DNA of 64,000 nucleotides from Candidatus Levyibacteriota bacterium (GTDB taxonomy: Bacteria; Patescibacteriota; Microgenomatia; Levybacterales; UBA12049): NCBI GenBank assembly GCA_003152105.1, contig PLZJ01000002.1, positions 108,257 to 172,256 on the forward strand, given 5' to 3'. The stretch's first letter is position 1. Every line of letters begins with the position of its first letter. The translations under genes and the position numbers were made by a program. Of this stretch, positions 45,104 through 63,490 are shown in pieces. The notes below the pieces were generated by a model. The model did not search any database. It was not told the DNA's origin and saw nothing but the letters and a program-made list of their open reading frames with translations.

Positions 45104-46801
45104 ATGAAACTCCGTGCCCTGCTCATATTATCCTTATTTATTGGCATTTTTTCTTTTTTCGCCTCCGGAGGACCAGCATTTGCGCAACAAGACTCTTCAT
45201 TTGCAAATCCTTCACAGAATAATCCATATTTACAACTTAATTTAGATAATAATGTTCCAAAAAATTTCCACACCTTCACACAAAGCTTAGTTCTTGAACT
45301 TCTGTCTAGTTCAACATGTTTAATTGCTGGCGTAGATGCATCAAACCCTAAGCAAGGTTGTTTAGGCACAAATCCTAAAACAGGAAAAATAGGATACGTT
45401 AAAAATGGAGGAGCTATTGAAGCAATGGGAACAATGGTTGGCTCACTCTATACCCCAACAGTTTCTTCCGGTGATTATATTGGATATTTAAATAAAAATT
45501 TTCAGGTAAAAAGTGCTTATGCGGCTACAGGTAGCTATGGGTTTAATGGCTTACTTCCTTACTTAAATGTATGGGTAGTTTTTAGAAACCTTGCGTACTT
45601 AGTTTTTGTCATATTATTTGTGGTGGTAGGATTCGCAATCATGCTAAGGCTAAAAATTGACCCACGTACCGTAATGACTATACAAAATCAGATTCCAAAA
45701 CTTATTGTATCCATACTTCTGGTAACTTTTTCTTATGCAATTGCAGGACTACTTATAGATTTAATGTGGACAAGCACGTTTTTGGTGATCAATATCTTCC
45801 ATGAAGCTCAACCTGCAATCAGCTCAACAGACGCATACAACAATATTGATAATCAACCTTTTGGATTTGTGAATGCTGCAGCTGTCCCAAACGGAGGGAA
45901 TATAGTTAGTCTTGCTGGACAAGGAGCTGGGGACGCAAAAGACGTCATCATTAGCATGTTTTCAAATAGCAGTCCAATTGTAAAACAGGGCACCGTTTTA
46001 AATGGAGGCACTATTCTAGGAGGTGCTGCAGTAGGTGCCGCTGGAGGAGCAGCAATAGGCGCAGGAATAGGAGCTTTTGCTTTTGGAGCAGGAGCTATAC
46101 CTGGAGCCGTAATTGGAGGTTTGGTTGGTGCAATTGGAGGAGGCCTTTTTGGAGCTGCAAATGGAGGCGTGAATGTTAATGCACTTGTTGGAAATGTTCT
46201 GACATTTATAATTGGCTACGTTATTTCTATTCTTGTATTTCTTGTATTGATGGTGGCACTTCTAGTTGCTCTTTTTAGATTGTGGTTTACCTTATTAAAA
46301 GCGTATGTGTTTGTACTAATTGGAGTTGTTCTATCCCCTTTATGGTTCTTAATCGGCACTTTGCCTGGAAAAAATGGATTTAATATGTGGCTAAAGTTTA
46401 TGCTGGGTAATCTGGCTGCATTCCCTGCAGCTGTAGCAATGCTACTGATGGGTAAATTATTTATGGTTTCTGGAGCTTATGGTGCAACATTTGTACCTCC
46501 TCTTATTGGAGATCCAAATGGTGCTTCTTTTTTGCCACTTGTCGGCATAGGATTTATATTAGCTACTCCAGGCGTAGTTGAGCTAACAAAATCAGTTATG
46601 AGCGGAAAAGGACCACAAGGCATTCCAGGTCTCGGAGGATCACTAAAATCAGGGCTTGCTGCACCAAGTAGAATACTAAGTGGAGGCGTCTCTTACTTTA
46701 CCAACCCACACTACAGTAGCAAAGGAGGCACAGACAAGAAAGGTGGCATTGTTTATCCAGGATCGATGTTCACCCGTCTATTTGGAGCTTTTAAAAGATA
46801 A
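45104..46801 (+). CDS. VirB6/TrbL-like polytopic membrane protein (T4SS inner-membrane component candidate)
   Basis: Signal peptide, ~120-aa extracytoplasmic segment, at least 6 TM helices and a Gly/Ala-rich stretch (GGAAVGAAGGAAIGAGIGAFAFGAGA), co-located with other T4SS-like genes. Confidence 0.4.
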   Translation: MKLRALLILSLFIGIFSFFASGGPAFAQQDSSFANPSQNNPYLQLNLDNNVPKNFHTFTQSLVLELLSSSTCLIAGVDASNPKQGCLGTNPKTGKIGYVKNGGAIEAMGTMVGSLYTPTVSSGDYIGYLNKNFQVKSAYAATGSYGFNGLLPYLNVWVVFRNLAYLVFVILFVVVGFAIMLRLKIDPRTVMTIQNQIPKLIVSILLVTFSYAIAGLLIDLMWTSTFLVINIFHEAQPAISSTDAYNNIDNQPFGFVNAAAVPNGGNIVSLAGQGAGDAKDVIISMFSNSSPIVKQGTVLNGGTILGGAAVGAAGGAAIGAGIGAFAFGAGAIPGAVIGGLVGAIGGGLFGAANGGVNVNALVGNVLTFIIGYVISILVFLVLMVALLVALFRLWFTLLKAYVFVLIGVVLSPLWFLIGTLPGKNGFNMWLKFMLGNLAAFPAAVAMLLMGKLFMVSGAYGATFVPPLIGDPNGASFLPLVGIGFILATPGVVELTKSVMSGKGPQGIPGLGGSLKSGLAAPSRILSGGVSYFTNPHYSSKGGTDKKGGIVYPGSMFTRLFGAFKR

Positions 46802-46804
46802 AAA

Positions 46805-49800
46805 TTATTGAATTATTCCTTCTGTAAGTGCTGATGAAGAATCAATTCCAATTTTCCCTGCTTCTATAAAACCTATTACAAATGCTCCAAAAATCGCTGT
46901 TAAAATTCTCCTACTAGCTATATCTTTACCCATGACCCTTAGCATTACTTCAAGTTCATGATAATATTTTTGCGTTTCTTTATATTTCTTTTTCATACCT
47001 TTATGTCGTTCTTTATTGAATTTTCCTTCGGCTTTTACTCCATATTTTTCGATCCTATCATTTCTTTCTTTTTCAGTTAATTGAGCCCATGTTTGCGCAC
47101 TTTTTTCCATACTTCCTGTTAATAGCTGTCTAATATGATCCAGCTTGACTCGTAATTCGTCTCGAGATAATGGTGTAGCTTCATGCCCATAAATTCTTTC
47201 GATTTCAGACATAGATTTTCGAAGTGGTAATTTACTTATACCTAATGAGTCAAAAACTAGAGGCATACGAGAAGCTAAATACCATGTTCCTAATGTATAT
47301 CGAACACCTTTAGCTCTTCCATTATCTTGTCCGCTATATTGACTTATGGCTTCCCCAAATTCTTCAGCATGTTTTGCCTTTGATTCAATATCTGAACCAT
47401 GTGATTTAATAAACGCAATTAACGCTTGTGCTGCTTTAATAGCGTTACCAAAATCATTATAGTTACGCACTAGCATATCTGAACCTGGTTCTGACGAAGC
47501 TTCTCGAGATACAGGAAGCATGTTCCAATTATCAGGAATATTTTCAATTTGATCGAAGAGTCCATCAGTTACATCTAAAGTTCTGACATAGATATCTTCG
47601 AATCTTGGATCCTTTATTAAAGCATCAATTACACTCATTCTACCTTTCCCTACTACCTGTATACCGTTACTTTCAATAAAGGACTGCATTGATTTGTATA
47701 CCTTTTCAATAGCTTCCCCAGCTCCTTCCTTACCTGTAGCTTTATTTAAAAATTGTTTGTCTTCTGCACTTAAGCTTCCGAAATTAATCTGTCGAGGAAC
47801 AGCTTCATGAAATCCTTTATCACGCAATAATCTTATTTCTGCTCCGTATTGCTTTCTAAATGCATCGTAATTTTCAAATCCATAAAGCTTCATCTGTGCA
47901 TTTAAAGCAGAAATTTGATCAGGAGTACGATCGCGTACTAGTTTTATTATTTCTTCTGTTTTGAATTTAGCTACTTTTTCCCAGAGACCTGTTAACTTTT
48001 CAGTTCTTCCTTCTTTAGATGCTCCCGCAGCTTTAATTTGCATAAATAAACCAAAGTTGGTTGCCTCATTAATAAATCTTTTTGGATCCTCTTCTTTAAA
48101 CCTTTTAATTTCTGCACTCAATGTTTCTTTGGGTATAGCTGCGATAATTGCATCATATTGTCTTTTATACTCTAATGGATTAGATTCTAATAGATTTTTA
48201 TGCTCACTTACCCAACCTGCCGTCAATGATTTCTCTGCAGTTCTGTGTTCTAATACTTTTTCTAGATTTTTTCTAAACTCAACCATTCTCCATCCTGAAG
48301 AAAAGAAATCAGGAACTGCATATAGATCACGGAATAATTTAATTCCTAATTCGTGCTTTTCTTCTTTACCCATATGCGACATATGATTATCTTTCATATA
48401 TCCGTCTGCCAAATCTTCGTATGTATAATCCATGTATTCCTGGTCTTCTTGATTTAACAGATCAAACTTTGCAAGTGTCATATCATGAATGTTATAGATA
48501 TTTGCAAATACTCGTGAAGGATCATTTCCAAAGGATTCAACGCCATATAAATGGTGATTTCTAGCAGATATTATTCCAAGTCTTCCAGAGCTAACAAATA
48601 TGTCATACGCTGTTCTGGATGCACGTTCAATTGCCCTTTTTAATTCTTCCTCTTTTGCAGTATCATCCCCAAAAGTTCTACTCCAAATTTCTGCAAATGG
48701 CCCTATTCCCGATTGAGCAAGTCTTTTTTGAATTTCTAATTGTTCACCCTTTATTATGTTTACTATATTTGCAGCAACTTCTACCTCCAATCGCTTATTA
48801 GGATCCTGAACACGCATATCATCAGAAAGCTCGTCCATGCGATTTATCATGTATTGGGTTGTTGAATCATATTGAGAAAGACCATACAGTAACCCCTTTG
48901 CCATTAAATTTTTTGCACTTCCTTGAGCACCCTCAAAATCATGTCTATCTAAAGTTGAACGCATAAATATTAAGCTTAATCTATTGCTGAAATTAACGGA
49001 AAAATTCTTAAGTACCGCGTTTTTTTTATCAATTTGCGCTTGTTTTTCTCTCATAAGCGTCACATAGTTTGTTTTTAGCTTTGCCTGTTCTGATTCAGGG
49101 CTCCCATCGAAACTTCCTTGTGCTTGAAGCTTAGAGTATTCTTCAGAAAGCTTTCTAAAATCATTCATGTCTATATGTACCTGCGTATCAAGATGTGTTT
49201 CTGCTTCTTGTACTAATCTCTGTACTGACTGGACATGATCAGAGCTGAGCTCATTTCCTTGATCTGCCATTTGATAGATTCGGTCAAACTGCGTATCAAG
49301 CCACGCTTCCGCATCTGAATTTAAGCTTTCTTTTGCTGAAGCTGTAAGTAAAAAACCAACTCTTTCATCTCTATCTTTAAGAGCTTCAGCTCTCTCACGA
49401 TCTATATATTGAAAATTTAACTTTTCTAAATACTTAATAGCCTCGTTACCAACATCGCTATTCATTCTTCCTTCATCGATATTTGTACGAATTCGATTTA
49501 TTTGTTCTGGAAGACTAGCCATGAAAGATTTAGGACTAATGTTGTAGGAGTTAGCTAATTCATTAAATATTCCAGCAGCAATACTATAGCTTGCCGCTTT
49601 TTTTTGATCTGTTTGTGCATCAAAGCTTTTTCCAAAATATGACTTCGCGAATTGCTCTAACTCACCTTCTTCTGGACCAAATGAGCTTTTTTGATCAAAA
49701 TTTCGAGGTTTTATTAAAGGTGGTTGATTTTCAGGTGTACTTGTCGAACCTTCTGGCATAAAAACTACTCCTCTGTTCATTGTAGTTCCAGCTGTATGTG

Positions 49801-49858
49801 CTGTCAATTCAGGCTCCGAATTTCGGATAGTAAAATTTGGTCGTTCAGTCATAGCCAA
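46805..49858 (-). CDS. large (1017 aa) acidic hypothetical protein with single C-terminal TM anchor
   Basis: Only one hydrophobic helix, at the extreme C-terminus (ILTAIFGAFVIGFIEAG). Convergent with the VirB6-like gene, stops 3 nt apart. Confidence 0.5.
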   Translation of the reverse strand: MAMTERPNFTIRNSEPELTAHTAGTTMNRGVVFMPEGSTSTPENQPPLIKPRNFDQKSSFGPEEGELEQFAKSYFGKSFDAQTDQKKAASYSIAAGIFNELANSYNISPKSFMASLPEQINRIRTNIDEGRMNSDVGNEAIKYLEKLNFQYIDRERAEALKDRDERVGFLLTASAKESLNSDAEAWLDTQFDRIYQMADQGNELSSDHVQSVQRLVQEAETHLDTQVHIDMNDFRKLSEEYSKLQAQGSFDGSPESEQAKLKTNYVTLMREKQAQIDKKNAVLKNFSVNFSNRLSLIFMRSTLDRHDFEGAQGSAKNLMAKGLLYGLSQYDSTTQYMINRMDELSDDMRVQDPNKRLEVEVAANIVNIIKGEQLEIQKRLAQSGIGPFAEIWSRTFGDDTAKEEELKRAIERASRTAYDIFVSSGRLGIISARNHHLYGVESFGNDPSRVFANIYNIHDMTLAKFDLLNQEDQEYMDYTYEDLADGYMKDNHMSHMGKEEKHELGIKLFRDLYAVPDFFSSGWRMVEFRKNLEKVLEHRTAEKSLTAGWVSEHKNLLESNPLEYKRQYDAIIAAIPKETLSAEIKRFKEEDPKRFINEATNFGLFMQIKAAGASKEGRTEKLTGLWEKVAKFKTEEIIKLVRDRTPDQISALNAQMKLYGFENYDAFRKQYGAEIRLLRDKGFHEAVPRQINFGSLSAEDKQFLNKATGKEGAGEAIEKVYKSMQSFIESNGIQVVGKGRMSVIDALIKDPRFEDIYVRTLDVTDGLFDQIENIPDNWNMLPVSREASSEPGSDMLVRNYNDFGNAIKAAQALIAFIKSHGSDIESKAKHAEEFGEAISQYSGQDNGRAKGVRYTLGTWYLASRMPLVFDSLGISKLPLRKSMSEIERIYGHEATPLSRDELRVKLDHIRQLLTGSMEKSAQTWAQLTEKERNDRIEKYGVKAEGKFNKERHKGMKKKYKETQKYYHELEVMLRVMGKDIASRRILTAIFGAFVIGFIEAGKIGIDSSSALTEGIIQ

Positions 49859-49960
49859 AGTATATGCAGTATGCCTATATATAACTTGACATTAATCTAT
49901 TAGTTACATTACAAATTCCTAACAATACATATTTTTTTAATCCTATGCTACAATTCGACT

Positions 49961-51286
49961 ATGGAAACACAACACTTTGAGGCTCTTTATCCAAAAGATT
50001 CATATGGTAAAGAGATTAAAAAATTGCATACATATATTAAGGAAGGAAATTCTATCCAGGTCATTGGATTGCCAGGTGTTGGTAAATCAAACTTATTAAA
50101 GACTTTAACTTATAACAAAGTTGTTAGAAGCACACAATTTAATAAAGGCCAGGAATGGATTCATTTTGTTTATCTAAATTTTGCTGAAATTAGAGAAAGG
50201 CCTCTACTTGATGTTACAAAATTCATTTTTATCTCACTTTTAGATTCAGTTGCTGAACGACAAATGACAGAAGTATACGAAAAATTAAATCAATTATTTA
50301 AAGAGGTCTTGTTGTTTCAAGATGAACTTGTTCTATTTCAAGCTCTTAAAAAAGCAGTAGATATTATTGCAATTGAAAATCAATTGACTATTGTATTATT
50401 ATTTGACAGATTTGAAGAATATATACCGAGTGTGTCGAATGTATTTTTTTCTAACTTAAGGGTGCTTCGAGACAGAGCCAAGTATCGCTTTTCTTGTGTA
50501 TTTGCAGTAAATAGACCGCTCGAAGATGTTCTAGATACTTCTATAATTGCAGATTTCTATGAATTTATAGCTGGACATTCTCTTTTTCTGCCTCTTTATG
50601 ATAATTCTGTACAGTCATTTAGAATTTCTTATTTAGAGAAGACTACCGGGAAAAAAATTAGTCATTCACAGTTAGTTAAAGTTTTTGAATTAACAGGCAG
50701 GCACAGTAAGCTGACACGAATTTGCATTGAAGTATGCTTAGAAGATGAAGTGAAAAAGGATAATTTAGTTGAATTCTTATTAAAGCAACCGAATGTAAAC
50801 GGAGTGTTAAAAGAAATTTGGTATGCGTTAACTCCTGCAGAGCAAACGCATCTAAAAAAGATGACTTCAAAAGATTTACCAAATGATACTCATGAATTTT
50901 TAATACTATCAGGCCTTATTAAAGAAAATACAATCCAAATTCCGCTTTTAAAAGATTATATTAAAAATCTACATAAAATTGGAGAAGAGACTTATTTCTA
51001 CAACAACACTACCCACATAATAACTAATGGGCAACATAATATATCAGACTTATTAACTAAAGCTGAATTTAAACTTTTAAAAATTCTCCTCGAACATAAA
51101 GATGAAATAGTTGATAGAAATACAATTATAGCAACTGTCTGGGATGAAAATAAATCAACTACTGGAATAACTGATCAAGCGCTTGATCAGCTAATTTTCA
51201 GGCTTCGGAAAAAAATAGAAGAGAATGTTAATTTACCAAAACACATTATTACCATTAAAGGTAGAGGAATTCGTTTTAATCCTTAA
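49961..51286 (+). CDS. AAA+/P-loop ATPase fused to C-terminal OmpR/PhoB-type winged-helix DNA-binding domain
   Basis: Walker A GLPGVGKSNLLKTL. C-terminal ...LTKAEFKLLKILLEH...IITIKGRGIRF (trans_reg_C-like). Confidence 0.6.
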   Translation: METQHFEALYPKDSYGKEIKKLHTYIKEGNSIQVIGLPGVGKSNLLKTLTYNKVVRSTQFNKGQEWIHFVYLNFAEIRERPLLDVTKFIFISLLDSVAERQMTEVYEKLNQLFKEVLLFQDELVLFQALKKAVDIIAIENQLTIVLLFDRFEEYIPSVSNVFFSNLRVLRDRAKYRFSCVFAVNRPLEDVLDTSIIADFYEFIAGHSLFLPLYDNSVQSFRISYLEKTTGKKISHSQLVKVFELTGRHSKLTRICIEVCLEDEVKKDNLVEFLLKQPNVNGVLKEIWYALTPAEQTHLKKMTSKDLPNDTHEFLILSGLIKENTIQIPLLKDYIKNLHKIGEETYFYNNTTHIITNGQHNISDLLTKAEFKLLKILLEHKDEIVDRNTIIATVWDENKSTTGITDQALDQLIFRLRKKIEENVNLPKHIITIKGRGIRFNP

Positions 51287-51327
51287 TGCTTGCAATTTAC
51301 TGCTTGCTTGTTTAGGATAAAGATAGA

Positions 51328-53103
51328 ATGAAATTCTTCTTAAGAACTCTTTCCGTTTTTGCTATCACAAGTATTTGCTTATTCGTATTTACCTTTACTG
51401 CTAAAGCAACATTTGTCCGTGGAGACCCAAGTTGTATAAACATTCCTGTATGCGTATACTACAATGATATCGCTAAGAGTGGCACTGACGTGCTTTCGTC
51501 AGGAGACACTGTTCCCAATACGGTTAATCAATTGCAAGTTGGCATTACAACACATAACCCGACAAAAAACTATACTCCAACTATTCCAATTAATAAAGTA
51601 ATTATTTTGGTTCGTGACAGTGAAAAAAATTATGATCCAACCGACGAAAACAACCCATTTGACAATAATAGTGCAATAATAAATTATGTTGTTTACAACA
51701 CCGGAGACTGTAGTATAGATTTAAATGGGGGCACATCGGTTTGGACAAAGGACACAAGTTCAGCTTGTTCTACAAATGGAACTTCAAACATCCACTTCAG
51801 TGATAGTATTGATATAACAAAATTGTTTCAAGATAGCCCAATTATATCCGGACATACTTATGAAATTGACGTTTATGGTGCGCATAGCCTTTATGACACT
51901 AATTACTATACTGTTGTTAAAGGAGGCAGCGGGGAGAATTGTAAAACTATTGTATGGGGAGATAGTGATGGAAATGATTATTGTGATTTTCCAACTACAA
52001 ATATGTCGCTAAAATTTGTAGTAGAACCTCCTAATTTTAAATATGTAAGTGACAAGGCACATTTTGACTGGAGCGATACCACAGTCTCTCCAGATACAAA
52101 CGCATTACTAGGTAGAGATGTAATAATTCATATTCCGGAAGCACTAAATAGACCTGATTCTGGTGTAAGTGATGGTAATTCAGATAATTCGGTAACGTAT
52201 AAATATGCTATTGAAGGGTATGGAATTAGCTACACCGAAGGAAATTGCTCTCAACCTGATTGCTATCAAACATATACGCTCCCCAATATTAGTACGATAC
52301 CCAAAGGAGTAAATAGCTTAGATTTATATATTTTCGGTCCAAATTCAGAAGGACATTATCAAGATTTTGTTAACCATCCTGGTGAGGCGGCAAACTTAAA
52401 AATACTCTCAATCAGTATTGATAATGCATATAGCTACATACTCGCAAATGATCCGGATGGAAGAAAAGAAAATGATTGTATATATGAAAATCCTCCTTCA
52501 ACTTGTCCTTTTAGACCTATGCCCACAAATTATCCCAATTATAAACCAGGTCAATATATTATTGCAGGAAGTCAAGAGAATAGTAAACACGCAGTGTTAT
52601 CATGTCACGGACCTGGAATATATCAAAATTCAAATGAGAATTCTTACATTTGCAATAATGAAGACACTTATGTAGCTTGTAATGGAAATCCTTCTTTAAC
52701 ATCTGTTAAACAGAATGGTCAAATTGAATATAACAATATTCGGTGCGTTAAAAGAAGCGATATTAAACCTCTTTCTCCCTGCACTCACCCAGAGGTAAGC
52801 AAAACTGATGGAGAGATCTCATGCGCAGGGGTCCCAACTGCACTCGGCACTCTTCCAACAGATCCTGAAGGTCTGGTTGCAGCTATATTTGGGATCTTAC
52901 TTAGCCTGTCTGGAGCAATTGCCCTTTATTTAATAGTTAGAGCTGGCTATAGAATTATGACTTCAGAAGGTACACCAGAAAAAATTACTCAAGGGAGAGA
53001 AGAATTGGTTTCAGCAATAACAGGATTGCTATTCATTATATTTTCGCTTGTGCTTTTTGAGATTATTACTCATTCATTTTTACATATCCCGGGCATATTA
53101 TAA
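51328..53103 (+). CDS. secreted ~500-aa Cys-rich extracellular protein fused to a C-terminal T4SS-pilin-like two-TM module
   Basis: Signal peptide, Asn/Thr/Cys-rich body, and a C-terminal 70 aa (AAIFGILLSLSGAIALYLIVRAGYRIMTSEGTPEKITQGREELVSAITGLLFIIFSLVLFEI) that aligns with the three downstream small proteins. Confidence 0.5.
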   Translation: MKFFLRTLSVFAITSICLFVFTFTAKATFVRGDPSCINIPVCVYYNDIAKSGTDVLSSGDTVPNTVNQLQVGITTHNPTKNYTPTIPINKVIILVRDSEKNYDPTDENNPFDNNSAIINYVVYNTGDCSIDLNGGTSVWTKDTSSACSTNGTSNIHFSDSIDITKLFQDSPIISGHTYEIDVYGAHSLYDTNYYTVVKGGSGENCKTIVWGDSDGNDYCDFPTTNMSLKFVVEPPNFKYVSDKAHFDWSDTTVSPDTNALLGRDVIIHIPEALNRPDSGVSDGNSDNSVTYKYAIEGYGISYTEGNCSQPDCYQTYTLPNISTIPKGVNSLDLYIFGPNSEGHYQDFVNHPGEAANLKILSISIDNAYSYILANDPDGRKENDCIYENPPSTCPFRPMPTNYPNYKPGQYIIAGSQENSKHAVLSCHGPGIYQNSNENSYICNNEDTYVACNGNPSLTSVKQNGQIEYNNIRCVKRSDIKPLSPCTHPEVSKTDGEISCAGVPTALGTLPTDPEGLVAAIFGILLSLSGAIALYLIVRAGYRIMTSEGTPEKITQGREELVSAITGLLFIIFSLVLFEIITHSFLHIPGIL

Positions 53104-53960: not shown

Positions 53961-54002
53961 TCGTTATTGCATTCCTCTCTCTCCTTTGTTACGCTTAATA
54001 TT

Positions 54003-54368: not shown

Positions 54369-56159
54369 TTATAAAAGTGGTAACACACCCAAAGCACCAG
54401 CTCCCAATCCAGCTGTTCCAAGTGCTGCTGCGACTATAGCTCCAGTTAAAAACTTTTTCCCGTGCTTACGAATTACAAAATCAATTATCTCTCTTCCAGA
54501 ATGACCTTGGATTGCACCCTCTTCTTTAGCTTTTTGTATCTCATCATCAAGCGCTTTATTTTTTGTTAACGATTCCGTGATTAACCCCTCACCCCATGAG
54601 CTCAAGGTGACTTTTTCTGCTTCAGCTTCGGTAAGCTTTCCATTCTTCAATCTATGAGAAAGAAGAGTTTTACCAACTTCTCTACCTTTTTTTGCAACAT
54701 AATCTGGATCCTTATTGAATTTTTCGTCTATTTCTGCTTGACTGATTCCGGTTCCTGGTGAGGTTAAAATTTTAGTTAATAATGCTCTTTCACCATTTTT
54801 CATTAAATCTTCGAAATCTGCATTTATTTCAGGTTTTTTACGTACCAAAACTTTTCTTCTCCTTATTATACCGTGGTTATTTCGAGTAGGCATTTCTGTC
54901 CATCGATCCAGTAATCCCTGAGATAAAACTGTGTCTATTCTTGTTAATGCATTATCGGATTCAGTTTTTAAACGGCCGACTTCTGCAGCATCTGCTTCTG
55001 AAAGACGACTATATATTAAATCCTCAGATGCCTCTGAAAATGCGTTTCCTAATTTTAGTTGCAATTCCATTTCTTTTTGCGCATGATCCCTAACCGCAGC
55101 ATCATAATCAGCTCTAGCTGATAAATATTCAGTATGTGCAGTTCTATCTTCTAAAGAAGCGTCCGGTTTTTGACCCTCAAGTCTCAGTTTATTTTCATTT
55201 AATTCCGTTTGATTCTTCAATAAAGCTTCTCTGTCTGATATCATTTTCTGAGTTACACCAATTTCTCTATAGTTATCGTCCAAAACTTGAACTGCCGCAT
55301 CTAATTGTCCTTGAAAAGTAGCTATGGTAGCAGTTGCTTTTCCGGAAGTTACCGCGTCATCTAAATCTTTTTGCAATCGCTTAACTGCAGCTGAGTAAAT
55401 TCTCGATTTATCTTGTTGTGCTTGCAATAAAGGCTCACGACTTCTTAAAGCTTTATTAAGTTTCTCGAGTTCCACTTTCTTTACTCCGGGAACTCCTGCT
55501 GTGTCTCCATATTCTGCCAACTGACTATTTATATGTTTTATTTCTGCATCTATTCCACTTAATTTTGTGTGTGCAACATCATATTTTATTTTAGTAACGT
55601 CTCTATTTTTTACGGCGTCTAAGGAGATATCTTCAATAGAAGTTGATGTTGCGCTTCTTACAACTTCTTTTAATTTATATTGGAATCGAGGTTCTTTTAC
55701 AAATGCGTCTATTACAGCAGTTTTTTCTGTGCCCGATAATGAATCAAGAAAAGTAGCTGCTTCAGGAGATGACGCATATATACTGTGCTCAACGATGTCC
55801 CTAACAAAACCCCTGTCTGCACTATCTGTCAATGCCGAAACTTCTCCACCTTTTTCTAAGAACTCCTGCACTCTTTTTAACTGTTTTTGAGCATCGACTC
55901 TTCGTGCTTCCTCTACTTTTGTAACTATTTTTGTCCCATCTGCTTTGCGCTCATGACCAAAGCTTTCATTAATACGCGCGTCTAACTGTCCGAAATCTAA
56001 AGGCTTATCCCTATGAGCTTCTTCAAGTGCGGCTTGATGACCTTTCTCTGCCATTGTTTCTCTAAGGGACTTTGCTTCGGCTTCAGACCCTGGCACAGCA
56101 GAAGTAATACCAGTATCTTTCACTTCAACGGCAGCTCTAACAGGTGCTTCTCTATTCAT
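54369..56159 (-). CDS. coiled-coil, Ala/Glu/Lys-rich hypothetical protein (596 aa) with C-terminal TM anchor
   Basis: Single C-terminal hydrophobic segment FLTGAIVAAALGTAGLGAGALGVLPLL; otherwise hydrophilic and coiled-coil-like. Confidence 0.45.
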   Translation of the reverse strand: MNREAPVRAAVEVKDTGITSAVPGSEAEAKSLRETMAEKGHQAALEEAHRDKPLDFGQLDARINESFGHERKADGTKIVTKVEEARRVDAQKQLKRVQEFLEKGGEVSALTDSADRGFVRDIVEHSIYASSPEAATFLDSLSGTEKTAVIDAFVKEPRFQYKLKEVVRSATSTSIEDISLDAVKNRDVTKIKYDVAHTKLSGIDAEIKHINSQLAEYGDTAGVPGVKKVELEKLNKALRSREPLLQAQQDKSRIYSAAVKRLQKDLDDAVTSGKATATIATFQGQLDAAVQVLDDNYREIGVTQKMISDREALLKNQTELNENKLRLEGQKPDASLEDRTAHTEYLSARADYDAAVRDHAQKEMELQLKLGNAFSEASEDLIYSRLSEADAAEVGRLKTESDNALTRIDTVLSQGLLDRWTEMPTRNNHGIIRRRKVLVRKKPEINADFEDLMKNGERALLTKILTSPGTGISQAEIDEKFNKDPDYVAKKGREVGKTLLSHRLKNGKLTEAEAEKVTLSSWGEGLITESLTKNKALDDEIQKAKEEGAIQGHSGREIIDFVIRKHGKKFLTGAIVAAALGTAGLGAGALGVLPLL

Positions 56160-56162
56160 ATC

Positions 56163-56510
56163 TTACTTTGCGTCTCCTCCTAATGCCGCTTTCGAGAGCT
56201 CTAATGCTTCATCAACTTTACCTTGCTTTGTAAGAGACTCTATGTCAGTTGCGGTACTCTTATCTTCTTTCACTTTTTCCTCACCCTTTTCGATAGTTAG
56301 AATTTTTTGAAAAATATCCCATTGAAAAGCTAATGCATATAAGAATTCTGATAAATCGGTTTTTGTTTGTATTCTTTGCATATTTTTTTGAATTTGACCT
56401 GAGATATCAACAGCTTCATCTTGCGTTAAGATGCCATTATGTAAACCATCAATCATTGCAATTGTTAATTTCTTTTCGATTTCATCTTTATGTTGCTGAT
56501 CTAATTGCAT
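56163..56510 (-). CDS. small acidic hypothetical protein (115 aa), operonic with the downstream coiled-coil gene
   Basis: Stop lies 4 nt before the start of the 54369-56159 gene. Confidence 0.4.
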   Translation of the reverse strand: MQLDQQHKDEIEKKLTIAMIDGLHNGILTQDEAVDISGQIQKNMQRIQTKTDLSEFLYALAFQWDIFQKILTIEKGEEKVKEDKSTATDIESLTKQGKVDEALELSKAALGGDAK

Positions 56511-56745
56511 ACTATATCAATAGTAATCTTTGCGCTTCTTAAATGTCAATAGAGCTACTGCAAATTTACATTTAGGCTTATTTAGTAACGTATATTTTCA
56601 CGATAAATTTACCTAGTTATAATCACATTTGACATACTTTGAACTGCTTGCATTGGAATTTTTCACGTATTACGATGATTTAAGCACAAGAATGATATAG
56701 TGCGAAACAGAAATCCTATATCTGGCTTTCTGCCCAAGACAGTAA

Positions 56746-58107
56746 ATGGAAAATCATCCTATACCGCAAGACATTACAGGTTTTCAGTTTAAGCTAATTG
56801 GCGAAATGACAGTCAAACAATTTGGCTACATTGCTGCTGGTGGAATACTTGCATGGATTTTTATTTTCGTTTTACCTCTTCCAGTATATATTAGGTTCCC
56901 TATAGGGTTACTATTTGCAGGGCTTGGATTATCCTTAGCATTTTTACCTATTGAAGGAAGACCAATGGATACAATGCTTGGCGCTTTTATGCTTACGCTG
57001 ATTCGACCTAATCAATATGTATTTCGAAAGCATGAATCACTTTTAACGCCAATTTTTGCGCAAAATATACCTCAGCCTTATGTAAAAACAGTATCTCAGA
57101 AGACACACTCAACTAAGTATACTGAGGAGCAAGTAGAAACATTTATTCAGAACTATCCCAAAAAAGCAAAAAATAAATGGGATGAAAAAGAACTGGCATA
57201 CAACAAAACGCTTGCAGAACTATATGTTCCACTTCCAGCTATAGATCAAAATCAGCCACCAATCCAGGAAACTGTAAAAACAATACCAATTCCTGTACCA
57301 CAACAAACTGCTCAAGGAATACCTCAATCGCAAATGTTGGTACATAATACTCTTAGTACTACTCAAGTTTCTGTTCAGCAACCTTCAGAAAAATCTAAAG
57401 CACAAGAAAATATTAATGCAGTTCTTGAAAATACACAAAGTTCTACCGAAAATAGCATTAAAAAAACTGATAACGATAAGTTAGAAAAGGAAAAAATTAA
57501 AAGAGAACTAGAGGTGGCAAGACTCGAGGAAGCAAATCAACAAAATGAATCACTTGCAAAAAATGCTCATGAGAAAGTCAATGAATTAGAAAAATTATTA
57601 AATGACAGTTCTACGCAAAAACAAAAGCTTGAACAAGAACTTTTACAACTCAAAAAACAATTAGAAGGTAAGAATCCAGATGTTTTCACTCCATCACAAG
57701 GACCAGAAAAGCTTCAAGAGACAAAAAATGTACAAGTAGTGCAAAAAAGCATGACAAAGGCTACCGGCCTACCTCAAGCTCCCGAAGCACCAAACTTACT
57801 AACAGGTATTGTTAGAGATCCAAGAAATAATCCATTACCAAACATCTTAATTGAAGTGAAAGACAAAGATGGAAATCCAGTAAGAGCATTTAAAACAAAC
57901 ATGTTGGGGTATTTTGCATCTGCAACGCCTCTCCAAAATGGCATATTTACCGTTGAGTTTGAAGACACGCAAAATGTTCACAAATTTGATGTCATTCAAC
58001 TTGAAACAAAAGGTCAAGTAATAATGCCTCTTGCCGTTACGTCTGTTGATGCTAGAGAAGAACTGCGAAGATCGCTCTTCACATCTCCTCAAGAAGGAGC
58101 AAATTAA
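56746..58107 (+). CDS. VirB3-like two-TM membrane protein extended by a coiled coil and a C-terminal beta-sandwich (carboxypeptidase-regulatory-like) domain
   Basis: Two N-terminal TM helices (FGYIAAGGILAWIFIFVL / IGLLFAGLGLSLAFL), positioned immediately upstream of VirB4. Central Q/E/K coiled coil; C-terminal GIVRDPRNNPLPNILIEVKDKDGNPVRAFKTNMLGYF. Confidence 0.4.
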   Translation: MENHPIPQDITGFQFKLIGEMTVKQFGYIAAGGILAWIFIFVLPLPVYIRFPIGLLFAGLGLSLAFLPIEGRPMDTMLGAFMLTLIRPNQYVFRKHESLLTPIFAQNIPQPYVKTVSQKTHSTKYTEEQVETFIQNYPKKAKNKWDEKELAYNKTLAELYVPLPAIDQNQPPIQETVKTIPIPVPQQTAQGIPQSQMLVHNTLSTTQVSVQQPSEKSKAQENINAVLENTQSSTENSIKKTDNDKLEKEKIKRELEVARLEEANQQNESLAKNAHEKVNELEKLLNDSSTQKQKLEQELLQLKKQLEGKNPDVFTPSQGPEKLQETKNVQVVQKSMTKATGLPQAPEAPNLLTGIVRDPRNNPLPNILIEVKDKDGNPVRAFKTNMLGYFASATPLQNGIFTVEFEDTQNVHKFDVIQLETKGQVIMPLAVTSVDAREELRRSLFTSPQEGAN

Positions 58108-58109: not shown

Positions 58110-58787
58110 ATGGCAAACCAAAAAAAAATTCAAGCTACCACTCAAAAATTCACCGAAATCAAAGCGATCGTAGATGACATTGTATTATTTCAAAATGATA
58201 CTGCGTGTTTAATCATAGAGGTTAGGGCTACAAATTTTGCGCTCATGTCCAAACAAGAGCAAGATATTAAAATTTATTCATATGCTTCGCTACTTAATTC
58301 TCTCTCATTTTCACTTCAAATATACATTCATAATAAAAAAATTGATATTTCATCATACTTAGGCTTGCTAGATGTAGAAATAAAAAAAACACAAAATAAG
58401 CTTTTGCAAGCAAATATGATGATGTATAGACAATTCGTAGAACAACTAGTTAAGGTAAATAGCGTGCTTGATAAACAATTTTATGTGGTCATTTCTTATA
58501 ATCCTTTAGAGAGAGGGGCAGTAAATACTGCTACAACATTAAAGGGGCAAGGAAAACAAAACGTCATTGACCAAGCTAAGGCTTCTCTTCACAGTAAGTC
58601 AACATCAATTTTAGCTCAGTTAGCACAACTCAATCTACCAGCCAAAACACTAATGGCAAATGAATTAATCCATTTGTTTTATGGTATTTACAATGAAGAC
58701 TCCATCGACTCAACAGAGCTAATAGCAGATACTAATACTCCTATTGTTAGATCTGTAATGCCATTACAAAACAAAAAGGAAACATGA
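58110..58787 (+). CDS. VirB4 N-terminal domain encoded as a separate ORF
   Basis: IVDDIVLFQNDTACLIIEVRATNFALMSKQEQD...SLLNSL matches the VirB4/TrbE N-terminal region. Its stop overlaps the next ATG (ATGA). Confidence 0.5.
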   Translation: MANQKKIQATTQKFTEIKAIVDDIVLFQNDTACLIIEVRATNFALMSKQEQDIKIYSYASLLNSLSFSLQIYIHNKKIDISSYLGLLDVEIKKTQNKLLQANMMMYRQFVEQLVKVNSVLDKQFYVVISYNPLERGAVNTATTLKGQGKQNVIDQAKASLHSKSTSILAQLAQLNLPAKTLMANELIHLFYGIYNEDSIDSTELIADTNTPIVRSVMPLQNKKET

Positions 58788-60778
58788 AATTACCAAACTT
58801 AAAAACAAAACTACCAAAAAATCGAAATATAGTAAAAAAACCCATAGGAGTTCCTCCGGCAATAGCCCACTTTGATAAAGGACTTGCTTCTATTCAAGAT
58901 ATCATAGCACCATCATCAGTTGAAGTAGATTTTCGACACATACGTATTGGAGAAACATTTTACAAAACATTATTCGTAGTAGGATATCCAAGATTTATAT
59001 CTCCAAATTGGCTTGATCCACTTATAAATTTTAATCACTCAGTCGACATCTCTATGTTTTGTTATCCAGAAGCATCCTCAGATGTCTTAACTGATTTAAG
59101 GAGAAAAATAGCAGAAATGGAAGCAACAATTTCTTCACAAATTGAAAACGGACAAGATGTAGATCCAAAAATTAGTGCCCAACTTGAAGATGCACTCGCA
59201 GTACAAGAACAATTAGCAAAAGGCGTGGAGAGATTTTTTCAGTTTGGCTTTTATATTACTCTCTCTTCTTCAACCACTCAGGAATTAGAAGAAATAACCA
59301 AACAACTTCACGCAACACTTTCATCTATGCTTCTCACTGCAAAAGCAGCTACTCTTCAAATGGAAGAAGGGTTTAAGTCCACAATCCCAATGGGAAGAGA
59401 CAGTCTTTATATAACTCGCAATATGGATACAACGTCTTTAGCATCAACGTTTCCATTTACTTCAGCAACACTCACGCAAAACAAAGGAGTTCTCTATGGC
59501 CTAAATGAACAAAATGGATCTCTTATTATTTTTGATAGGTACTCATTGGAAAATGCAAATGAAGTAGTTTTAGGAAAATCTGGAGCCGGGAAATCATATC
59601 TTATTAAATTAGAAACAATGAGGCAATTTATGTTTGGGACTGAAGTAATTATTATTGACCCTGAAGGCGAATATGACGCACTAGTTCAATCTCTCGGAGG
59701 CGAAAGGGTAATTTTTACTGCTTCTAATCCAGTTAAAATTAACCCTTTTGACTTATCGGGTATGTATGAACCTGGGGAAAATGAACTCGGATTAAAAATA
59801 TTATCTCTCCATGGATTACTTCGAATTATTATGGGAAATCTAGACGCAACGCATGATGCTATCCTAGATAGAGCACTTGTTGAAACTTACAGACAAAAAG
59901 GAATTACGCCAGATCCAGCTACTCAATCAAAAATACCTCCCACCATGCAAGATCTTTATAAAGTACTTCTTGGTTACGAAGATCCCAATGCGCAAGAACT
60001 TGCATTTAGATTAGAAAAATTCATTAAAGGTTCTTTGGCAGGAATCTTTAATCAACAATCAAATTTTGATATTTCAAATCCACTAACTGTTTTTGATATT
60101 AAATTTCTCGAAGAAGAATTACGACCGGTAGCAATGCATATAATATTGGATTTTGTATGGACTAAAGTAAGAAAAACTCTAAAAAAAAGATTGCTCATAC
60201 TTGACGAGGCATGGTATGTAATGAAGTATGAAGATTCAGCTTCTTTTGTATATGGCATTGCAAAAAGAGCCAGGAAATACTACCTGGGCCTTACTACAGC
60301 AACGCAAGATGTGGAGGACTTTTTGGCTACAGATTATGGAAAAGCTGTACTCTCCAATTCATCTATTCAGGTGCTACTTAAACAAGGAACTTCATCTAGC
60401 GAACAAGTCGGTAAAATATTCTATCTGACTGATTCGGAAAAGCAATTACTTCAATCGGCTCAAATCGGAGAAGGCTTATTTTTTGCAGGCCAGAATCATG
60501 TGATTATTCGTATTATTGCTGCCCCTCATGAACACCAAGTTATAACTTCAGATCCTAAAGAAAAACTAAAAATGGAACAAAAGGCTGTTCAAGATGCAAT
60601 ACCAGAAAAACCTATGAATAATACTGCGCAAACTAATCCTCAAAAAACGGCAGAATCATCACAAAATATCAACAGCACTGAAGCCATACGGCCACCTGAG
60701 AATTTAACAACGCCAATTATGCCGATTACAAACGAAGTTTCGAACGTGGCGTCTCCACCAAATAAACCAACTCAGTAA
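58784..60778 (+). CDS. VirB4/TrbE-family T4SS ATPase (ATPase domain)
   Basis: Walker A GKSGAGKSYL; Walker B RLLILDEAWYVM; conserved arrangement of the VirB4 C-terminal half. Confidence 0.8.
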   Translation: MKLPNLKTKLPKNRNIVKKPIGVPPAIAHFDKGLASIQDIIAPSSVEVDFRHIRIGETFYKTLFVVGYPRFISPNWLDPLINFNHSVDISMFCYPEASSDVLTDLRRKIAEMEATISSQIENGQDVDPKISAQLEDALAVQEQLAKGVERFFQFGFYITLSSSTTQELEEITKQLHATLSSMLLTAKAATLQMEEGFKSTIPMGRDSLYITRNMDTTSLASTFPFTSATLTQNKGVLYGLNEQNGSLIIFDRYSLENANEVVLGKSGAGKSYLIKLETMRQFMFGTEVIIIDPEGEYDALVQSLGGERVIFTASNPVKINPFDLSGMYEPGENELGLKILSLHGLLRIIMGNLDATHDAILDRALVETYRQKGITPDPATQSKIPPTMQDLYKVLLGYEDPNAQELAFRLEKFIKGSLAGIFNQQSNFDISNPLTVFDIKFLEEELRPVAMHIILDFVWTKVRKTLKKRLLILDEAWYVMKYEDSASFVYGIAKRARKYYLGLTTATQDVEDFLATDYGKAVLSNSSIQVLLKQGTSSSEQVGKIFYLTDSEKQLLQSAQIGEGLFFAGQNHVIIRIIAAPHEHQVITSDPKEKLKMEQKAVQDAIPEKPMNNTAQTNPQKTAESSQNINSTEAIRPPENLTTPIMPITNEVSNVASPPNKPTQ

Positions 60779-60800
60779 TAGTCTGATATGATATTGCAAT

Positions 60801-62933
60801 ATGGCAACTACATTACCTCCAGATCAAACTCAGAAAGATGAAAAAATCAGATCTGTAAAGAGTTTAATTACTTTAGCAAACAGAGATAGAACAGGAACGG
60901 TCTCAAGAATAATTAACAACCCTAATTTTATCGAAAGTCAAATTCAACTAAAAGAACTACTAAGAGTTCATCCAGAATACGATATTTCACTCGAGGCACT
61001 AAAGGATTATCAAGATGATCTCGGGAAAAAAGAAACTGAACCAAAAAGCGAAAATAATACAGAGAAAGACAGCCATGATGAGTCGCATTCAACTCACCAT
61101 GAAACTATTCACCTTCATGTAGAAAACGAGTCAGATACTAAAAAAGTGGATCCAAATGATTATTTATTAGAAGAAAATTATGTAGATGCTCCGAAGCTAA
61201 CAAAACAAGGCGTAGTCGATAGTTATTTAAATGATCGACATGTCGCTGAATATCAAAAAGTTATGGCAAAAACATTTTCTCATGAAAATCCAAATGCTAC
61301 GATCGAAACATTTTATGATGTATTTGCAAAAGACTATGCTCCTGAATTAGAAAAACAAGAAAAAATCGAAGAACAAAGAATTTATCTAAATCAACCTGAA
61401 AAAGACCCACTATACCAACAGCTATTAAGTAATATCGAAACAGAAACTACTATTGCACGAAAGATGACAGATGAAGGAAAAATAACTAAATATGGATCTA
61501 CTGACATGAAAGAGATAACCAGAATAATTAATGAGAGACATTTTTATGCTTTTATACGTAAATACCCAGGAAAGGTTCAATCACATATTTCAAATCCAAT
61601 AGTAACGAAAATAGTTGAACACATTAAAGATGTTGAAAGTCAAAAAAAACAAAAAGTAAAAGATAAAAAAACTCCAACTACCCAAGCAGCTCCGACTAAA
61701 ATTCCCATAGAAGTTAAAAGTCAGCAATTCAATAGCGAACATCCTAAAACTTCAAGCACAACTAGCTCTTATGCACACAAACAAACTTTTCGTCCACAAA
61801 ACGATATAAGTAACTTTTCTAGTCAACCTCTTAGCTCAACATTCAATTTTTTTAATAATTTTTCGCCCAGAATTAGATCAGTTTCTAGACCAACGGCAAG
61901 TAATGAAGCAAGAGGAATTAGAGTTCAATCTAGAACAGCTAGGTCTATAGCAAGAAATCCTTTGACCTCATCGCTACTTAGGGGTGCTACTAGAGTAGGT
62001 GGCGGTTTAGCATCCAATGCCCTCAAGCTAGCTGCTAGAACACCTTGGTTCTGGATAGTGATTGGTATTATTGTAGGCATTTTTATACTTATAGCAGTTA
62101 TTATATTAATAATTGAAATAATAACTGGCAAGTTACCAATAGGCGGAGGCGGAGGCGGAACACTTTTACCAGGTCAACATTTCTCGTTAACCAAAACAGC
62201 TTCGCCAGCATTTGTAACAATTGTTCCTGGACATGAAAAAGAAGCAAGAATTACCTATACGATCACTCCCGACTTTAACGGTGACGGTTCAGTAGATATA
62301 ACAGATCCTATACCCAATGGCACAAACTATGTTGATGGTTCAGCTTCGCCCGATCCAAGCTCCAAGCAAACGACCGGCAAAAATGTTACATCATTAACAT
62401 GGAATAATATTGAAAATGGAACTAGTATTACATTCCAGGTTCAACCCACGCACGATGGAGCGTTTACGAATATAGCATCTGGAACTCTCTCGGGAAATTC
62501 GGGCATAAGCCCAACAGCAAACACTAATACATGTAATGGTCGCTACACAACAGATATTCAAAATAACTACTTGCTTCATAAAAATTTTGGAGATCCCAAT
62601 TGCACCTTGATAACAGCAGCCGAAAGAAATGATTTATATAATTATATTAAACAGGTTGATCCTGCCAATGCTGACTGGTGGTTTAATACTATTATTCCTT
62701 GCGAAAGTGGATATGACCCAAACTCGTGGCTTAGCCCTCAAGGAGGAACTCCTGATCCTCATGGAGCATGGGGGCTTTTTCAAGACGGTAGTAGTGAGCC
62801 AACTCCAGGAGGGAATGGTAATGGATTAAACGGCAAATACGATAGAGGGGATGTTGAATGGCACCAGCAAGTATTTAATGCTGCGCATTTACTTCAAACA
62901 AATGGGTCTGGTTATTGGGCGTGTTCAGGCTAA
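60801..62933 (+). CDS. membrane-anchored protein with C-terminal lytic-transglycosylase-like (VirB1-like) domain
   Basis: Acidic N-terminal region, central TM (WFWIVIGIIVGIFILIAVIILII), Gly-rich linker. The C-terminal IIPCESGYDPN...GAWGLFQ resembles the SLT catalytic ES...GLMQ motifs. Confidence 0.45.
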   Translation: MATTLPPDQTQKDEKIRSVKSLITLANRDRTGTVSRIINNPNFIESQIQLKELLRVHPEYDISLEALKDYQDDLGKKETEPKSENNTEKDSHDESHSTHHETIHLHVENESDTKKVDPNDYLLEENYVDAPKLTKQGVVDSYLNDRHVAEYQKVMAKTFSHENPNATIETFYDVFAKDYAPELEKQEKIEEQRIYLNQPEKDPLYQQLLSNIETETTIARKMTDEGKITKYGSTDMKEITRIINERHFYAFIRKYPGKVQSHISNPIVTKIVEHIKDVESQKKQKVKDKKTPTTQAAPTKIPIEVKSQQFNSEHPKTSSTTSSYAHKQTFRPQNDISNFSSQPLSSTFNFFNNFSPRIRSVSRPTASNEARGIRVQSRTARSIARNPLTSSLLRGATRVGGGLASNALKLAARTPWFWIVIGIIVGIFILIAVIILIIEIITGKLPIGGGGGGTLLPGQHFSLTKTASPAFVTIVPGHEKEARITYTITPDFNGDGSVDITDPIPNGTNYVDGSASPDPSSKQTTGKNVTSLTWNNIENGTSITFQVQPTHDGAFTNIASGTLSGNSGISPTANTNTCNGRYTTDIQNNYLLHKNFGDPNCTLITAAERNDLYNYIKQVDPANADWWFNTIIPCESGYDPNSWLSPQGGTPDPHGAWGLFQDGSSEPTPGGNGNGLNGKYDRGDVEWHQQVFNAAHLLQTNGSGYWACSG

Positions 62934-62950
62934 TATGATATAAATAAATT

Positions 62951-63490
62951 ATGAACGAATATTCAAAGAGGCAAAAAATAATAATACTTACAGTGGGTAT
63001 AATTATACTTTTTGGTACCATTGGAGTTATTACATTTTTATTTCTTAGCAATATTAATAATAAAACTCAAAGCTACTTACCCACACCAACGACTAAGCCC
63101 GCTCTTAGAACAGTTCCGCTTGTTATTTATAATTCGAGTAAGTCAAACGAATTATTAAAAAAGCTTGAAAATAGACAAGCTCTAACACAAAACGATACCT
63201 CAATTAGACAAAAACTAATTAGTCCCTTAAATGGGCAGAGCGGAGATATTCAACTTACAAATGATTATGATATCCAATACCTAAGTAGCCCAGATCAATT
63301 CCAGGTAGAAATTCTATCTACCAATATTAGTTTAGCTAAACAAGAGGCTGTTAATTGGTTTATTGCTCAAGGAATGAGTCAAGACGGTATATGCAAATTA
63401 CCACTGAGTTTTTTTATGAATCATTCAGTCGCACAGCAGCTACAAGGAAAAAACATTACTTTCAATCCATTGCCTGATAATTGTAATTAA
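62951..63490 (+). CDS. bitopic membrane protein (N-terminal TM + ~140-aa extracytoplasmic domain), possibly VirB8-like
   Basis: Assignment by topology and position only. Confidence 0.35.
   Translation: MNEYSKRQKIIILTVGIIILFGTIGVITFLFLSNINNKTQSYLPTPTTKPALRTVPLVIYNSSKSNELLKKLENRQALTQNDTSIRQKLISPLNGQSGDIQLTNDYDIQYLSSPDQFQVEILSTNISLAKQEAVNWFIAQGMSQDGICKLPLSFFMNHSVAQQLQGKNITFNPLPDNCN

Follow-up and report, generated by a model that had tools for sequence, protein, structure and literature searches.

An origin-adjacent type IV secretion locus of a Levybacteria-like genome, probably a vertically inherited member of the published Patescibacteria clade

Type IV secretion system (T4SS) genes that lie together on a chromosome with no relaxase among them raise the question of whether the machine conjugates or serves another exchange between cells, and whether it is a new system or a member of a known one. 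We asked this of the locus at 45104–63490 of a 64,000-nucleotide stretch (the window) of contig PLZJ01000002.1, from a Candidatus Levyibacteriota bacterium. The initial annotation had read the locus as a minimal T4SS-like apparatus of candidate phyla radiation (CPR)/Gram-positive type, probably not a conventional conjugation system, and unusual in gene content and order. All the genes that it listed were recovered at their positions by an open reading frame (ORF) and hydropathy check, and the component tests set beforehand (Pfam matches, synteny, and a relaxase just outside the window) were carried out here. Our reading, to which we assign a probability of about 0.85, is that the locus is a chromosomal, vertically inherited T4SS of a Levybacteria-like genome, belonging to the published Patescibacteria clade that comes from monoderm MPF-FATA conjugation machinery.

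The VirB4 ATPase was assigned to its clade by best matches, with Pfam matches judged by gathering score and NCBIfam matches by curated cutoffs. Beyond its P-loop_TraG domain (Table 1), it carries the Walker A motif GKSGAGKS at residue 264 and the Walker B motif LLILDE at residue 470, and it scores 387 bits against the Firmicutes CD1110 VirB4 family (NF045971), above that family's cutoff of 325. The nearest solved VirB4 structure is that of Thermoanaerobacter (4ag5, 9.4e-46), and Gram-negative TrwK is matched at 1.4e-4. Database homologues number more than 7999; the named ones, 64 to 79% identical, belong to Candidatus Levybacteria/Levyibacteriota or the "Patescibacteria group," and we therefore take the genome to be a Levybacteria-like member of the Microgenomatia. 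Overlapping the virB4 start by 4 nt is a trsD-like gene that was missing from the initial annotation. Its product aligns to positions 97 to 276 of NF045975 (VirB4_plasma; E 1.1e-6), a single-chain VirB4 model from Mycoplasma integrative and conjugative elements (ICEs), and the virB4 product aligns to positions 292 to 890. Because the two proteins cover consecutive parts of one single-chain model, VirB4 is, as read from these alignments, in effect split over two polypeptides (58110–58787 and 58784–60778).

The same gene order recurs across 80 Levybacteria-like genome loci, and the locus is therefore typical for its lineage. The order begins with a virB6-like gene, a large minus-strand gene, a regulator, and a long pilin followed by three short ones, and it continues with prgI, trsD, virB4, a bitopic hydrolase, one to five small bitopic proteins, dnaN, and dnaA. 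Counted over loci with a full flank (48 upstream, 51 downstream), prgI and trsD are each present in 48/48, pilins in 43 to 44, and the regulator gene, on either strand, in 38; the virB6-like gene precedes virB4 in no fewer than 23 of the 48, a lower bound since it sits near the flank limit. Downstream, dnaN and dnaA are present in all 51 loci, dnaN at a median of 2.8 kb after virB4. Genes beyond our window were read from the public gene calls of WOOD18-1 scaffold_5 (ENA ERZ28653421), a metagenomic scaffold of 1.139 Mb, and the analysis covered about 84 kb of its 1.14 Mb, the window plus 10 kb past either end. Beyond the window end come the remainder of a CHAP protein of 428 amino acids (aa), a 241-aa bitopic Ig-like protein, dnaN, dnaA, rnpA, yidD, and yidC, with dnaN and dnaA some 3 to 5 kb past it. 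The rest of the window reads as housekeeping genes, and its GC content is uniform (0.32 to 0.38) over the full 64 kb. The sole local peculiarity of gene order is a gene pair, for a 596-aa and a 115-aa protein, between the pilins and prgI, found in just one other locus (L017) among the 80.

This architecture has precedents. Wang et al. (2023) described in Southlakia epibionticum an essential T4SS (SEML1_0006–0019) that resembles Gram-positive conjugative systems, includes an essential pilin series, and has no recognizable coupling protein or relaxase (PMC10633639); comEC is not essential for growth of that organism (PMC10633639; PMC12857230). In 3035 genomes, Quinonero-Coronel et al. (2025) recovered the Patescibacteria VirB4 proteins as one monophyletic clade inside MPF-FATA, with TrsD, PrgI/VirB3, VirB6, and VirB2-like pilins widespread, the last in 441 arrays of 2 to 11 pilins of about 25% identity (PMC12102498). 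Relaxases were rare, type IV coupling protein (T4CP) homologues were mostly far from virB4, loci lay near dnaA/dnaN, and the T4CP homologue of S. epibionticum was not essential; in Microgenomatia, VirB6 was scarce, VirB3 was rarely near virB4, and VirB8 was essentially undetected (PMC12102498). A 2025 review (PMC12857230) and a 2026 preprint take the Patescibacteria T4SS as established, and the preprint describes tubules at the parasite–host interface, which may be T4SS pili, and acquisition of host RNA.

The present locus agrees with that clade in its MPF-FATA VirB4 and adjacent TrsD, in PrgI/VirB3, a candidate VirB6, and a divergent pilin array (pairwise identities of 25 to 38%, where the survey gave a mean of 25%), in lysozyme and peptidase genes after virB4, in having no recognized relaxase, and in its far T4CP-like gene and dnaA/dnaN adjacency. 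Because this composition and position were already published between 2023 and 2025 (PMC10633639, PMC12102498), we regard the system as known: the locus is a typical Levybacteria member of the published Patescibacteria T4SS, not a new system. The proposed CPR/Gram-positive-like type was borne out by the CD1110-type VirB4, TrsD, PrgI, and published architecture, whereas the claim of unusual gene content and order fails, the order being conserved across the 80 loci. In contrast to what was reported for Microgenomatia, prgI is linked in 48/48 loci here, and a divergent VirB6-like gene lies 8 to 12 kb upstream. The main text of PMC12102498 makes no mention of a P-loop/winged-helix regulator, a ~1000-aa protein family, a long first pilin, a multi-copy small bitopic family, or a conserved prgI operator. 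What our analysis adds is, for Levybacteria, a linked prgI and a divergent virB6; a regulator and an operator that are both conserved; a long pilin of hypervariable sequence; the ~1000-aa family; and the non-VirB8 small bitopic family.

General scans (MOBscan and CONJscan profiles were not run) found no relaxase family among the Pfam matches of any gene in the window or the 10 kb on either side, as the initial annotation had proposed. It had also placed the VirD4-like ATPase correctly: the gene lies about 41 kb from the locus, beside a tyrosine recombinase and tRNA-Ile and with no genomic linkage to the T4SS genes, and its product matches three T4CP families above cutoff (TrwB_AAD_bind, TraG-D_C, and T4SS-DNA_transf). 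Its NCBIfam and Protein Data Bank (PDB) matches are limited to the Walker A region, the former far below cutoffs and the latter (DotL and TrwB) at about 6e-5. It is uncertain that this ATPase is part of the T4SS. Its neighbors are, to one side, a XerC/XerD-like recombinase (200–1060, by NCBIfam) with divIC and, to the other, ribonucleotide reductase with gap and pgk. The tRNA-Ile (1109–1182, minus strand) has the anticodon TAT (UAU); such a tRNA would read AUA directly without lysidine modification and is uncommon in bacteria. As annotated, the recombinase and tRNA-Ile sit among housekeeping genes with no apparent mark of a mobile element. The VirD4-like gene shares 1264–5571 of the minus strand with three co-oriented ORFs (143, 57, and 413 aa) that have no family or PDB match, the 413-aa product ending in a Cys-rich zinc-ribbon-like motif.

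No ICE boundary emerged: the recombinase is XerC/D-like, GC content is uniform, and the same oriC-adjacent site is occupied in 51/51 relatives. The initial annotation had argued against conventional conjugation partly from the absence of VirB9, VirB10, and VirB11. These proteins are normally missing from monoderm conjugative T4SSs. That part of the argument falls, and the non-conjugative reading holds as probable because the relaxase is missing and the chromosomal position next to oriC is fixed.

Table 1 Features of the T4SS locus and the VirD4-like gene, in window coordinates. TM, transmembrane.
Feature	Coordinates	Strand	Description
VirD4/T4CP-like ATPase	1264–3654	-	796 aa, one N-terminal TM, DUF8128, Walker A at residue 399
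VirB6/TrbL-like polytopic membrane protein, divergent	45104–46801	+	565 aa, signal peptide, ~8 hydrophobic segments, Gly-rich loop
1017-aa protein	46805–49858	-	No signal peptide, no internal TM, one weakly hydrophobic C-terminal helix
Candidate locus regulator	49961–51286	+	441 aa; P-loop NTPase and C-terminal OmpR-type winged helix
Candidate pilin-operon promoter	51290–51318	+	TTGCAA-N17-TAGGAT, predicted, ending 9 nt before ATG
Long pilin	51328–53103	+	591 aa; PF18895 at residues 516–579, 27.3 bits (cutoff 26.6)
VirB2-like pilin	53145–53492	+	115 aa; PF18895 1e-6; two TM helices
VirB2-like pilin	53526–53960	+	144 aa; PF18895 2.1e-7; signal peptide and two TM helices
VirB2-like pilin	53967–54335	+	122 aa from first TTG; PF18895 1.3e-10
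596-aa coiled-coil-rich protein	54369–56159	-	Gly/Ala-rich C-terminal TM at residues 575–593 (tail-anchored)
115-aa soluble protein	56163–56510	-	Co-oriented with the 596-aa gene
Conserved promoter/operator of prgI-trsD-virB4 operon	56595–56676	+	Predicted, from multi-locus conservation
PrgI/VirB3-like	56746–58107	+	453 aa; PF12666 31.6 bits (cutoff 27); TM hairpin
TrsD/TraC-like, free-standing VirB4 N-terminal domain homologue	58110–58787	+	PF26593 TraC-like (precomputed annotation)
VirB4 ATPase, monoderm (MPF-FATA, CD1110) type	58784–60778	+	P-loop_TraG PF19044 2.7e-26; also DUF87/AAA_10
VirB1 analogue, bitopic	60801–62933	+	710 aa: ~418-aa cytoplasmic N-domain, TM 419–437, extracellular region ending lysozyme-like
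Small bitopic protein	62951–63490	+	179 aa: N-terminal TM, Pro/Thr linker, ~110-aa domain with 2 invariant Cys
Secreted CHAP (peptidoglycan amidase/peptidase) protein, 5′ part	63492–64000	+	428 aa in full, continues past window

Among the remaining translocon parts, the polytopic protein at the start of the locus was accepted as a divergent VirB6, with moderate confidence. Its polytopic character was confirmed, but the proposed VirB6/TrbL identity found no direct Pfam match, and a profile search against PDB sequences was also empty. The identity comes instead from relatives and from modeled structure. TrbL (PF04610) is matched by 3 of 30 aligned family members (best 1.3e-7), and the top four Foldseek PDB matches of an AlphaFold2 model (predicted local distance difference test score, pLDDT, 60) are all TrwI/VirB6 of R388, weakly (E 0.24 to 0.64; probability 0.51 at E 0.24). 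The family is large, with 916 homologues detected, nearly all without Pfam annotation. The VirB3-like protein passed the PrgI cutoff, as proposed. It consists of an N-terminal PrgI domain with a two-TM hairpin, a long low-complexity Gln/Glu/Lys-rich coiled-coil linker, and a C-terminal beta-sandwich that resembles CarboxypepD_reg below cutoff (PF13620, 4.1e-5). At about 350 aa longer than usual for a PrgI/VirB3 homologue, it has orthologues that are also long (269 to 473 aa).

The four tandem T4SS pilins that had been proposed all score above the gathering threshold for PF18895, and their pairwise identity is 25 to 38%. The first pilin, long in most loci, here has a signal peptide, an extracellular domain of about 480 aa with 16 Cys, and a C-terminal VirB2-like two-helix pilin domain; a PDB sequence search returned no match. 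Its relatives, 59 to 647 aa in total length, align only over residues ~480 to 590, the last ~100 residues. The public gene call for the fourth pilin begins at 54003, which gives a 110-aa product.

The VirB1-like muramidase of the initial annotation was upheld at superfamily level. The protein on its own has no Pfam match, but a profile of the C-terminal domain built from 18 orthologues matches C-type lysozymes in the PDB at 3.4e-5, and SLT is matched by 6 of the 18 (best 1.6e-5). An invariant Glu of the family aligns with the lysozyme catalytic ES motif. By its lysozyme-like domain, invariant Glu, and place in a T4SS locus, the protein is a predicted VirB1-type hydrolase of the lysozyme/SLT superfamily, a type marked by a catalytic Glu in an E-S motif and by a GLxQ motif. 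In the 43 loci in which it was found by jackhmmer, it is always encoded by the first gene after virB4. The small protein that follows had been described as having VirB8 topology, and it does have the bitopic arrangement with an N-terminal TM helix. The VirB8 part of the description was not borne out: there was no PDB match, and no NTF2-like/VirB8 fold was found in fold and sequence searches. An AlphaFold2 model from a four-sequence alignment has a pLDDT of 77 (85 to 94 in the globular domain). Each locus encodes 1 to 5 paralogues, with 71 matches in 46 loci. The CHAP protein that closes the window carries its CHAP domain at the C terminus (4.8e-5, 24.2 bits against a cutoff of 26). A 151-aa minus-strand ORF (63500–63955) was rejected as a spurious antisense artifact of the CHAP gene.

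The winged helix-turn-helix half of the proposed AAA+/winged-helix regulator was confirmed by a C-terminal Trans_reg_C match (PF00486, 1.7e-17) and by matches to the effector domains of PhoB, RpaB, and OmpR. For its N-terminal half, which carries the Walker A motif GLPGVGKS at residue 36, the AAA_22 (1.6e-5), AAA_16, and STAND-like matches are all sub-threshold.

Upstream of prgI lies a conserved candidate promoter/operator, in which a distal TTTTCACG box is followed by a TTTGAC-N4-TTTGA direct repeat (10-bp spacing) abutting TTGCAT, the predicted −35 (56648–56653); the predicted −10 is TACGAT (56671–56676), and the 17-nt spacer contains an invariant ATTTTTCAC. Of 71 loci, 56 carry the 7-mer TTTTCAC upstream of prgI, usually as two boxes 61 to 66 bp apart, and an alignment of 18 upstream regions has 29 invariant columns. 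The 64 kb contain 3 copies of TTTTCACR where 8.8 would be expected, and this element holds two of the three. Judged by conservation, the predicted element is real at the DNA level; as an RNA element it was rejected, there being no consensus structure and no Rfam match. The OmpR-type regulator may, we infer, bind the direct repeats.

At the position of the candidate pilin-operon promoter, relatives show CTTGCA-N17-TACGAT, and in most relatives the −10 of prgI lies about 8 nt before its ATG. No Shine–Dalgarno sequence was found at the long pilin start (51313–51330) or at the prgI starts of relatives. A predicted −10 ending some 8 to 9 nt before the start codon, together with the lack of a Shine–Dalgarno sequence, suggests a leaderless or near-leaderless mRNA for the long pilin and, in most relatives, for prgI. 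TGCTTGC was considered as a regulator motif and rejected: with 15 found against 9.8 expected it is not enriched, and it was re-read as part of −35-like boxes. A generic promoter and terminator scan returned fewer sites than shuffled controls, and a repeat search in the locus gave nothing above chance.

Two large proteins had been called tail-anchored. Both have a C-terminal hydrophobic segment, convincing in the 596-aa protein and weak in the 1017-aa protein; because only 5 of 27 relatives of the latter have a hydrophobic C terminus, the tail anchor is not conserved in its family. The 1017-aa protein has no Pfam, PDB, or enzymatic family match. At least 27 loci encode positional equivalents of 860 to 1330 aa, oriented opposite to virB4 and adjoining the regulator gene, and always between virB6 and the regulator. 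By BLASTP, 24 of 29 compared sequences join one family, and identity to the closest relatives is about 28% for this protein but 70% for VirB4. The 596-aa protein has no family or PDB match; its candidacy as a paralogue of the 1017-aa protein was rejected, the two sharing just a 29-residue match at E 0.006.

Set beside the Gram-positive MPF-FATA systems (pCF10 Prg/Pcf, pGO1 Trs, the CTn2 CD1110 family, and ICEBs1), the locus resembles their minimal VirB1/B3/B4/B6(/B8)/D4 composition, its VirB6 and VirD4 being candidates, and like them has no VirB7, VirB9, VirB10, or VirB11; it also combines a VirB4 above the CD1110 cutoff, TrsD and PrgI homologues, and lysozyme/SLT and CHAP hydrolases. Unlike those systems, it has no recognized relaxase or oriT, its candidate coupling protein lies outside the locus, and it is fixed at oriC instead of being carried on a plasmid or ICE. 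It also has VirB2-like pilins, whereas typical Gram-positive conjugative systems use adhesins, and its hydrolase domains are on two proteins, the lysozyme-like one with a cytoplasmic N-domain of ~418 aa. The Mycoplasma ICE (Mbov_0395, pilin-like; Mbov_0397, VirB4) is similar in that TrsD and VirB4 jointly cover the Mbov_0397 model and two pilins, among them that at 53526–53960, weakly match the Mycoplasma ICE pilin-like family NF045849, which indicates that a monoderm system without a wall can also have a pilin-like protein. Each of these matches falls far short of its curated cutoff; in Mycoplasma, moreover, VirB4 is one continuous chain and the ICEs are mobile. Archaeal Ced and Helicobacter pylori ComB are comparable as relaxase-less, T4SS-derived machines proposed to import nucleic acid; the CedB match is weak (5.3e-18, 65 bits against a cutoff of 700) and reflects shared VirB4 ancestry alone, and no CedA-like or ComB-specific components were identified.

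In the mechanism that we propose, sigma-70-like promoters would drive the pilin operon and the prgI-trsD-virB4-hydrolase operon, the prgI promoter being embedded in the conserved operator, where the regulator may bind. VirB4, VirB3, and VirB6 would build a channel across the envelope and, through a hole cut in the wall by the hydrolase, a VirB2-type pilus; this pilus would touch a host bacterium, with the variable long pilin as its host-specific adhesin. We infer that the function is contact-dependent exchange of macromolecules for epibiotic growth, not conjugation, and we lean slightly toward import of nucleic acid or other macromolecules from the host over export of effectors. Several points weigh against this account. 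Function, substrate, and direction are drawn from relatives alone, the Levybacteria T4SS being known here from its genes; the VirB6 label depends on transitive and weak structural support (no direct Pfam match; Foldseek E 0.24); the prgI element also occurs in loci in which no regulator was found within 10 kb (L019, for example); and no VirB8 equivalent could be identified in the locus.

The same machine might instead export effector proteins into the host, the ~1000-aa protein and perhaps the 596-aa protein being substrates by way of amphipathic or hydrophobic C-terminal tails, an alternative to DNA transport that Wang et al. also offered (PMC10633639). We consider this possible, if unlikely. 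The ~1000-aa protein is large, lacks a signal peptide, is encoded at a constant place in 27 loci or more, and diverges much faster than its neighbors; its ~45 C-terminal residues are hydrophobic or amphipathic in the family members examined, and known T4SS effectors carry C-terminal signals. However, searches of it revealed neither an effector-like domain nor an enzymatic family, rapid evolution would also be expected of a structural protein under host or phage pressure, and the substrate-recruiting coupling ATPase is 41 kb off, its homologue not being essential in S. epibionticum. The pilus could also be an attachment organelle that transfers no substrate, with VirB4, VirB3, and VirB6 just its assembly platform. 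Four pilins, one with a large variable extracellular domain, and the lack of an adjacent coupling protein or relaxase would fit this, and we count in its favor that VirB4 drives pilus biogenesis. It is nonetheless improbable: Patescibacteria already adhere by type IV pili (PMC12102498), the T4SS is separately essential in S. epibionticum, and the retained wall hydrolase and VirB6 channel fit a transport conduit equally well.

Very improbable, in our estimate, is a functional or recently decayed Gram-positive-type ICE whose relaxase is too divergent to recognize or lies elsewhere, for example near the VirD4-like gene. VirB4 does exceed the curated cutoff of a conjugative-transposon family, the T4CP-like ATPase adjoins three unannotated ORFs and a tyrosine recombinase, and the 2025 survey allows that strongly divergent relaxases could so far have escaped detection (PMC12102498). 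Yet no relaxase family is matched in the window or within 10 kb of it, the recombinase is XerC/D-like and flanked by divIC, murD, ribonucleotide reductase, gap, and pgk, and the T4SS occupies the same dnaN-dnaA site in 51/51 relatives, has chromosome-like composition, and tracks lineage (intraclass inheritance, PMC12102498). An ICE would not be expected to keep to one site, match the chromosome, and follow lineage in this manner. In a bolder reading, the conserved Levybacteria accessory layer could form a host-range cassette through which the machine turns on once a host is sensed. In it, a signal-sensing P-loop/winged-helix regulator would act on the invariant prgI operator; the hypervariable Cys-rich ectodomain of the first pilin would be a host-specific pilus adhesin; the ~1000-aa cytoplasmic protein would be either an effector that is translocated or a coupling or scaffold factor, specific to the lineage, that stands in for the missing T4CP; and the multi-copy small bitopic family, possibly resembling ring-building motifs, would replace VirB8. 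That all four parts hold jointly is speculative and rather doubtful.

Elsewhere, the window encodes ribonucleotide reductase, gap, pgk, two class A penicillin-binding proteins, SpoIID, SmpB, transfer-messenger RNA (tmRNA), and seven tRNA/tmRNA genes in all. The tmRNA (24487–24850) directly follows smpB (24002–24445), and four tRNA-Ser genes, with anticodons gct, tga, cga, and gga, lie within 18 kb (26322–29461 and 43715–43802). Minus-strand genes at 29374–35920 may form a small integrated element: a 588-aa large serine recombinase (phrog_95, 4.6e-51) whose 3′ end overlaps tRNA-Ser(cga), followed by seven co-oriented ORFs without known families, apart from one DUF5659. This region has no att repeats and no recognizable relaxase, and a PHROGs scan of its ORFs matched the recombinase alone.

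Much of bacterial diversity belongs to the Patescibacteria, which seem to live on other microbes. The T4SS beside their replication origin, essential in the single species in which this was examined, is the foremost candidate for drawing macromolecules from the host. The locus described here brings no new principle; it is a clean and complete Levybacteria example, and it offers candidates for parts that are scarce or missing in Microgenomatia, namely VirB6, VirB1, and a VirB8 substitute. Its conserved regulator and operator could be used to ask when the machine switches on.

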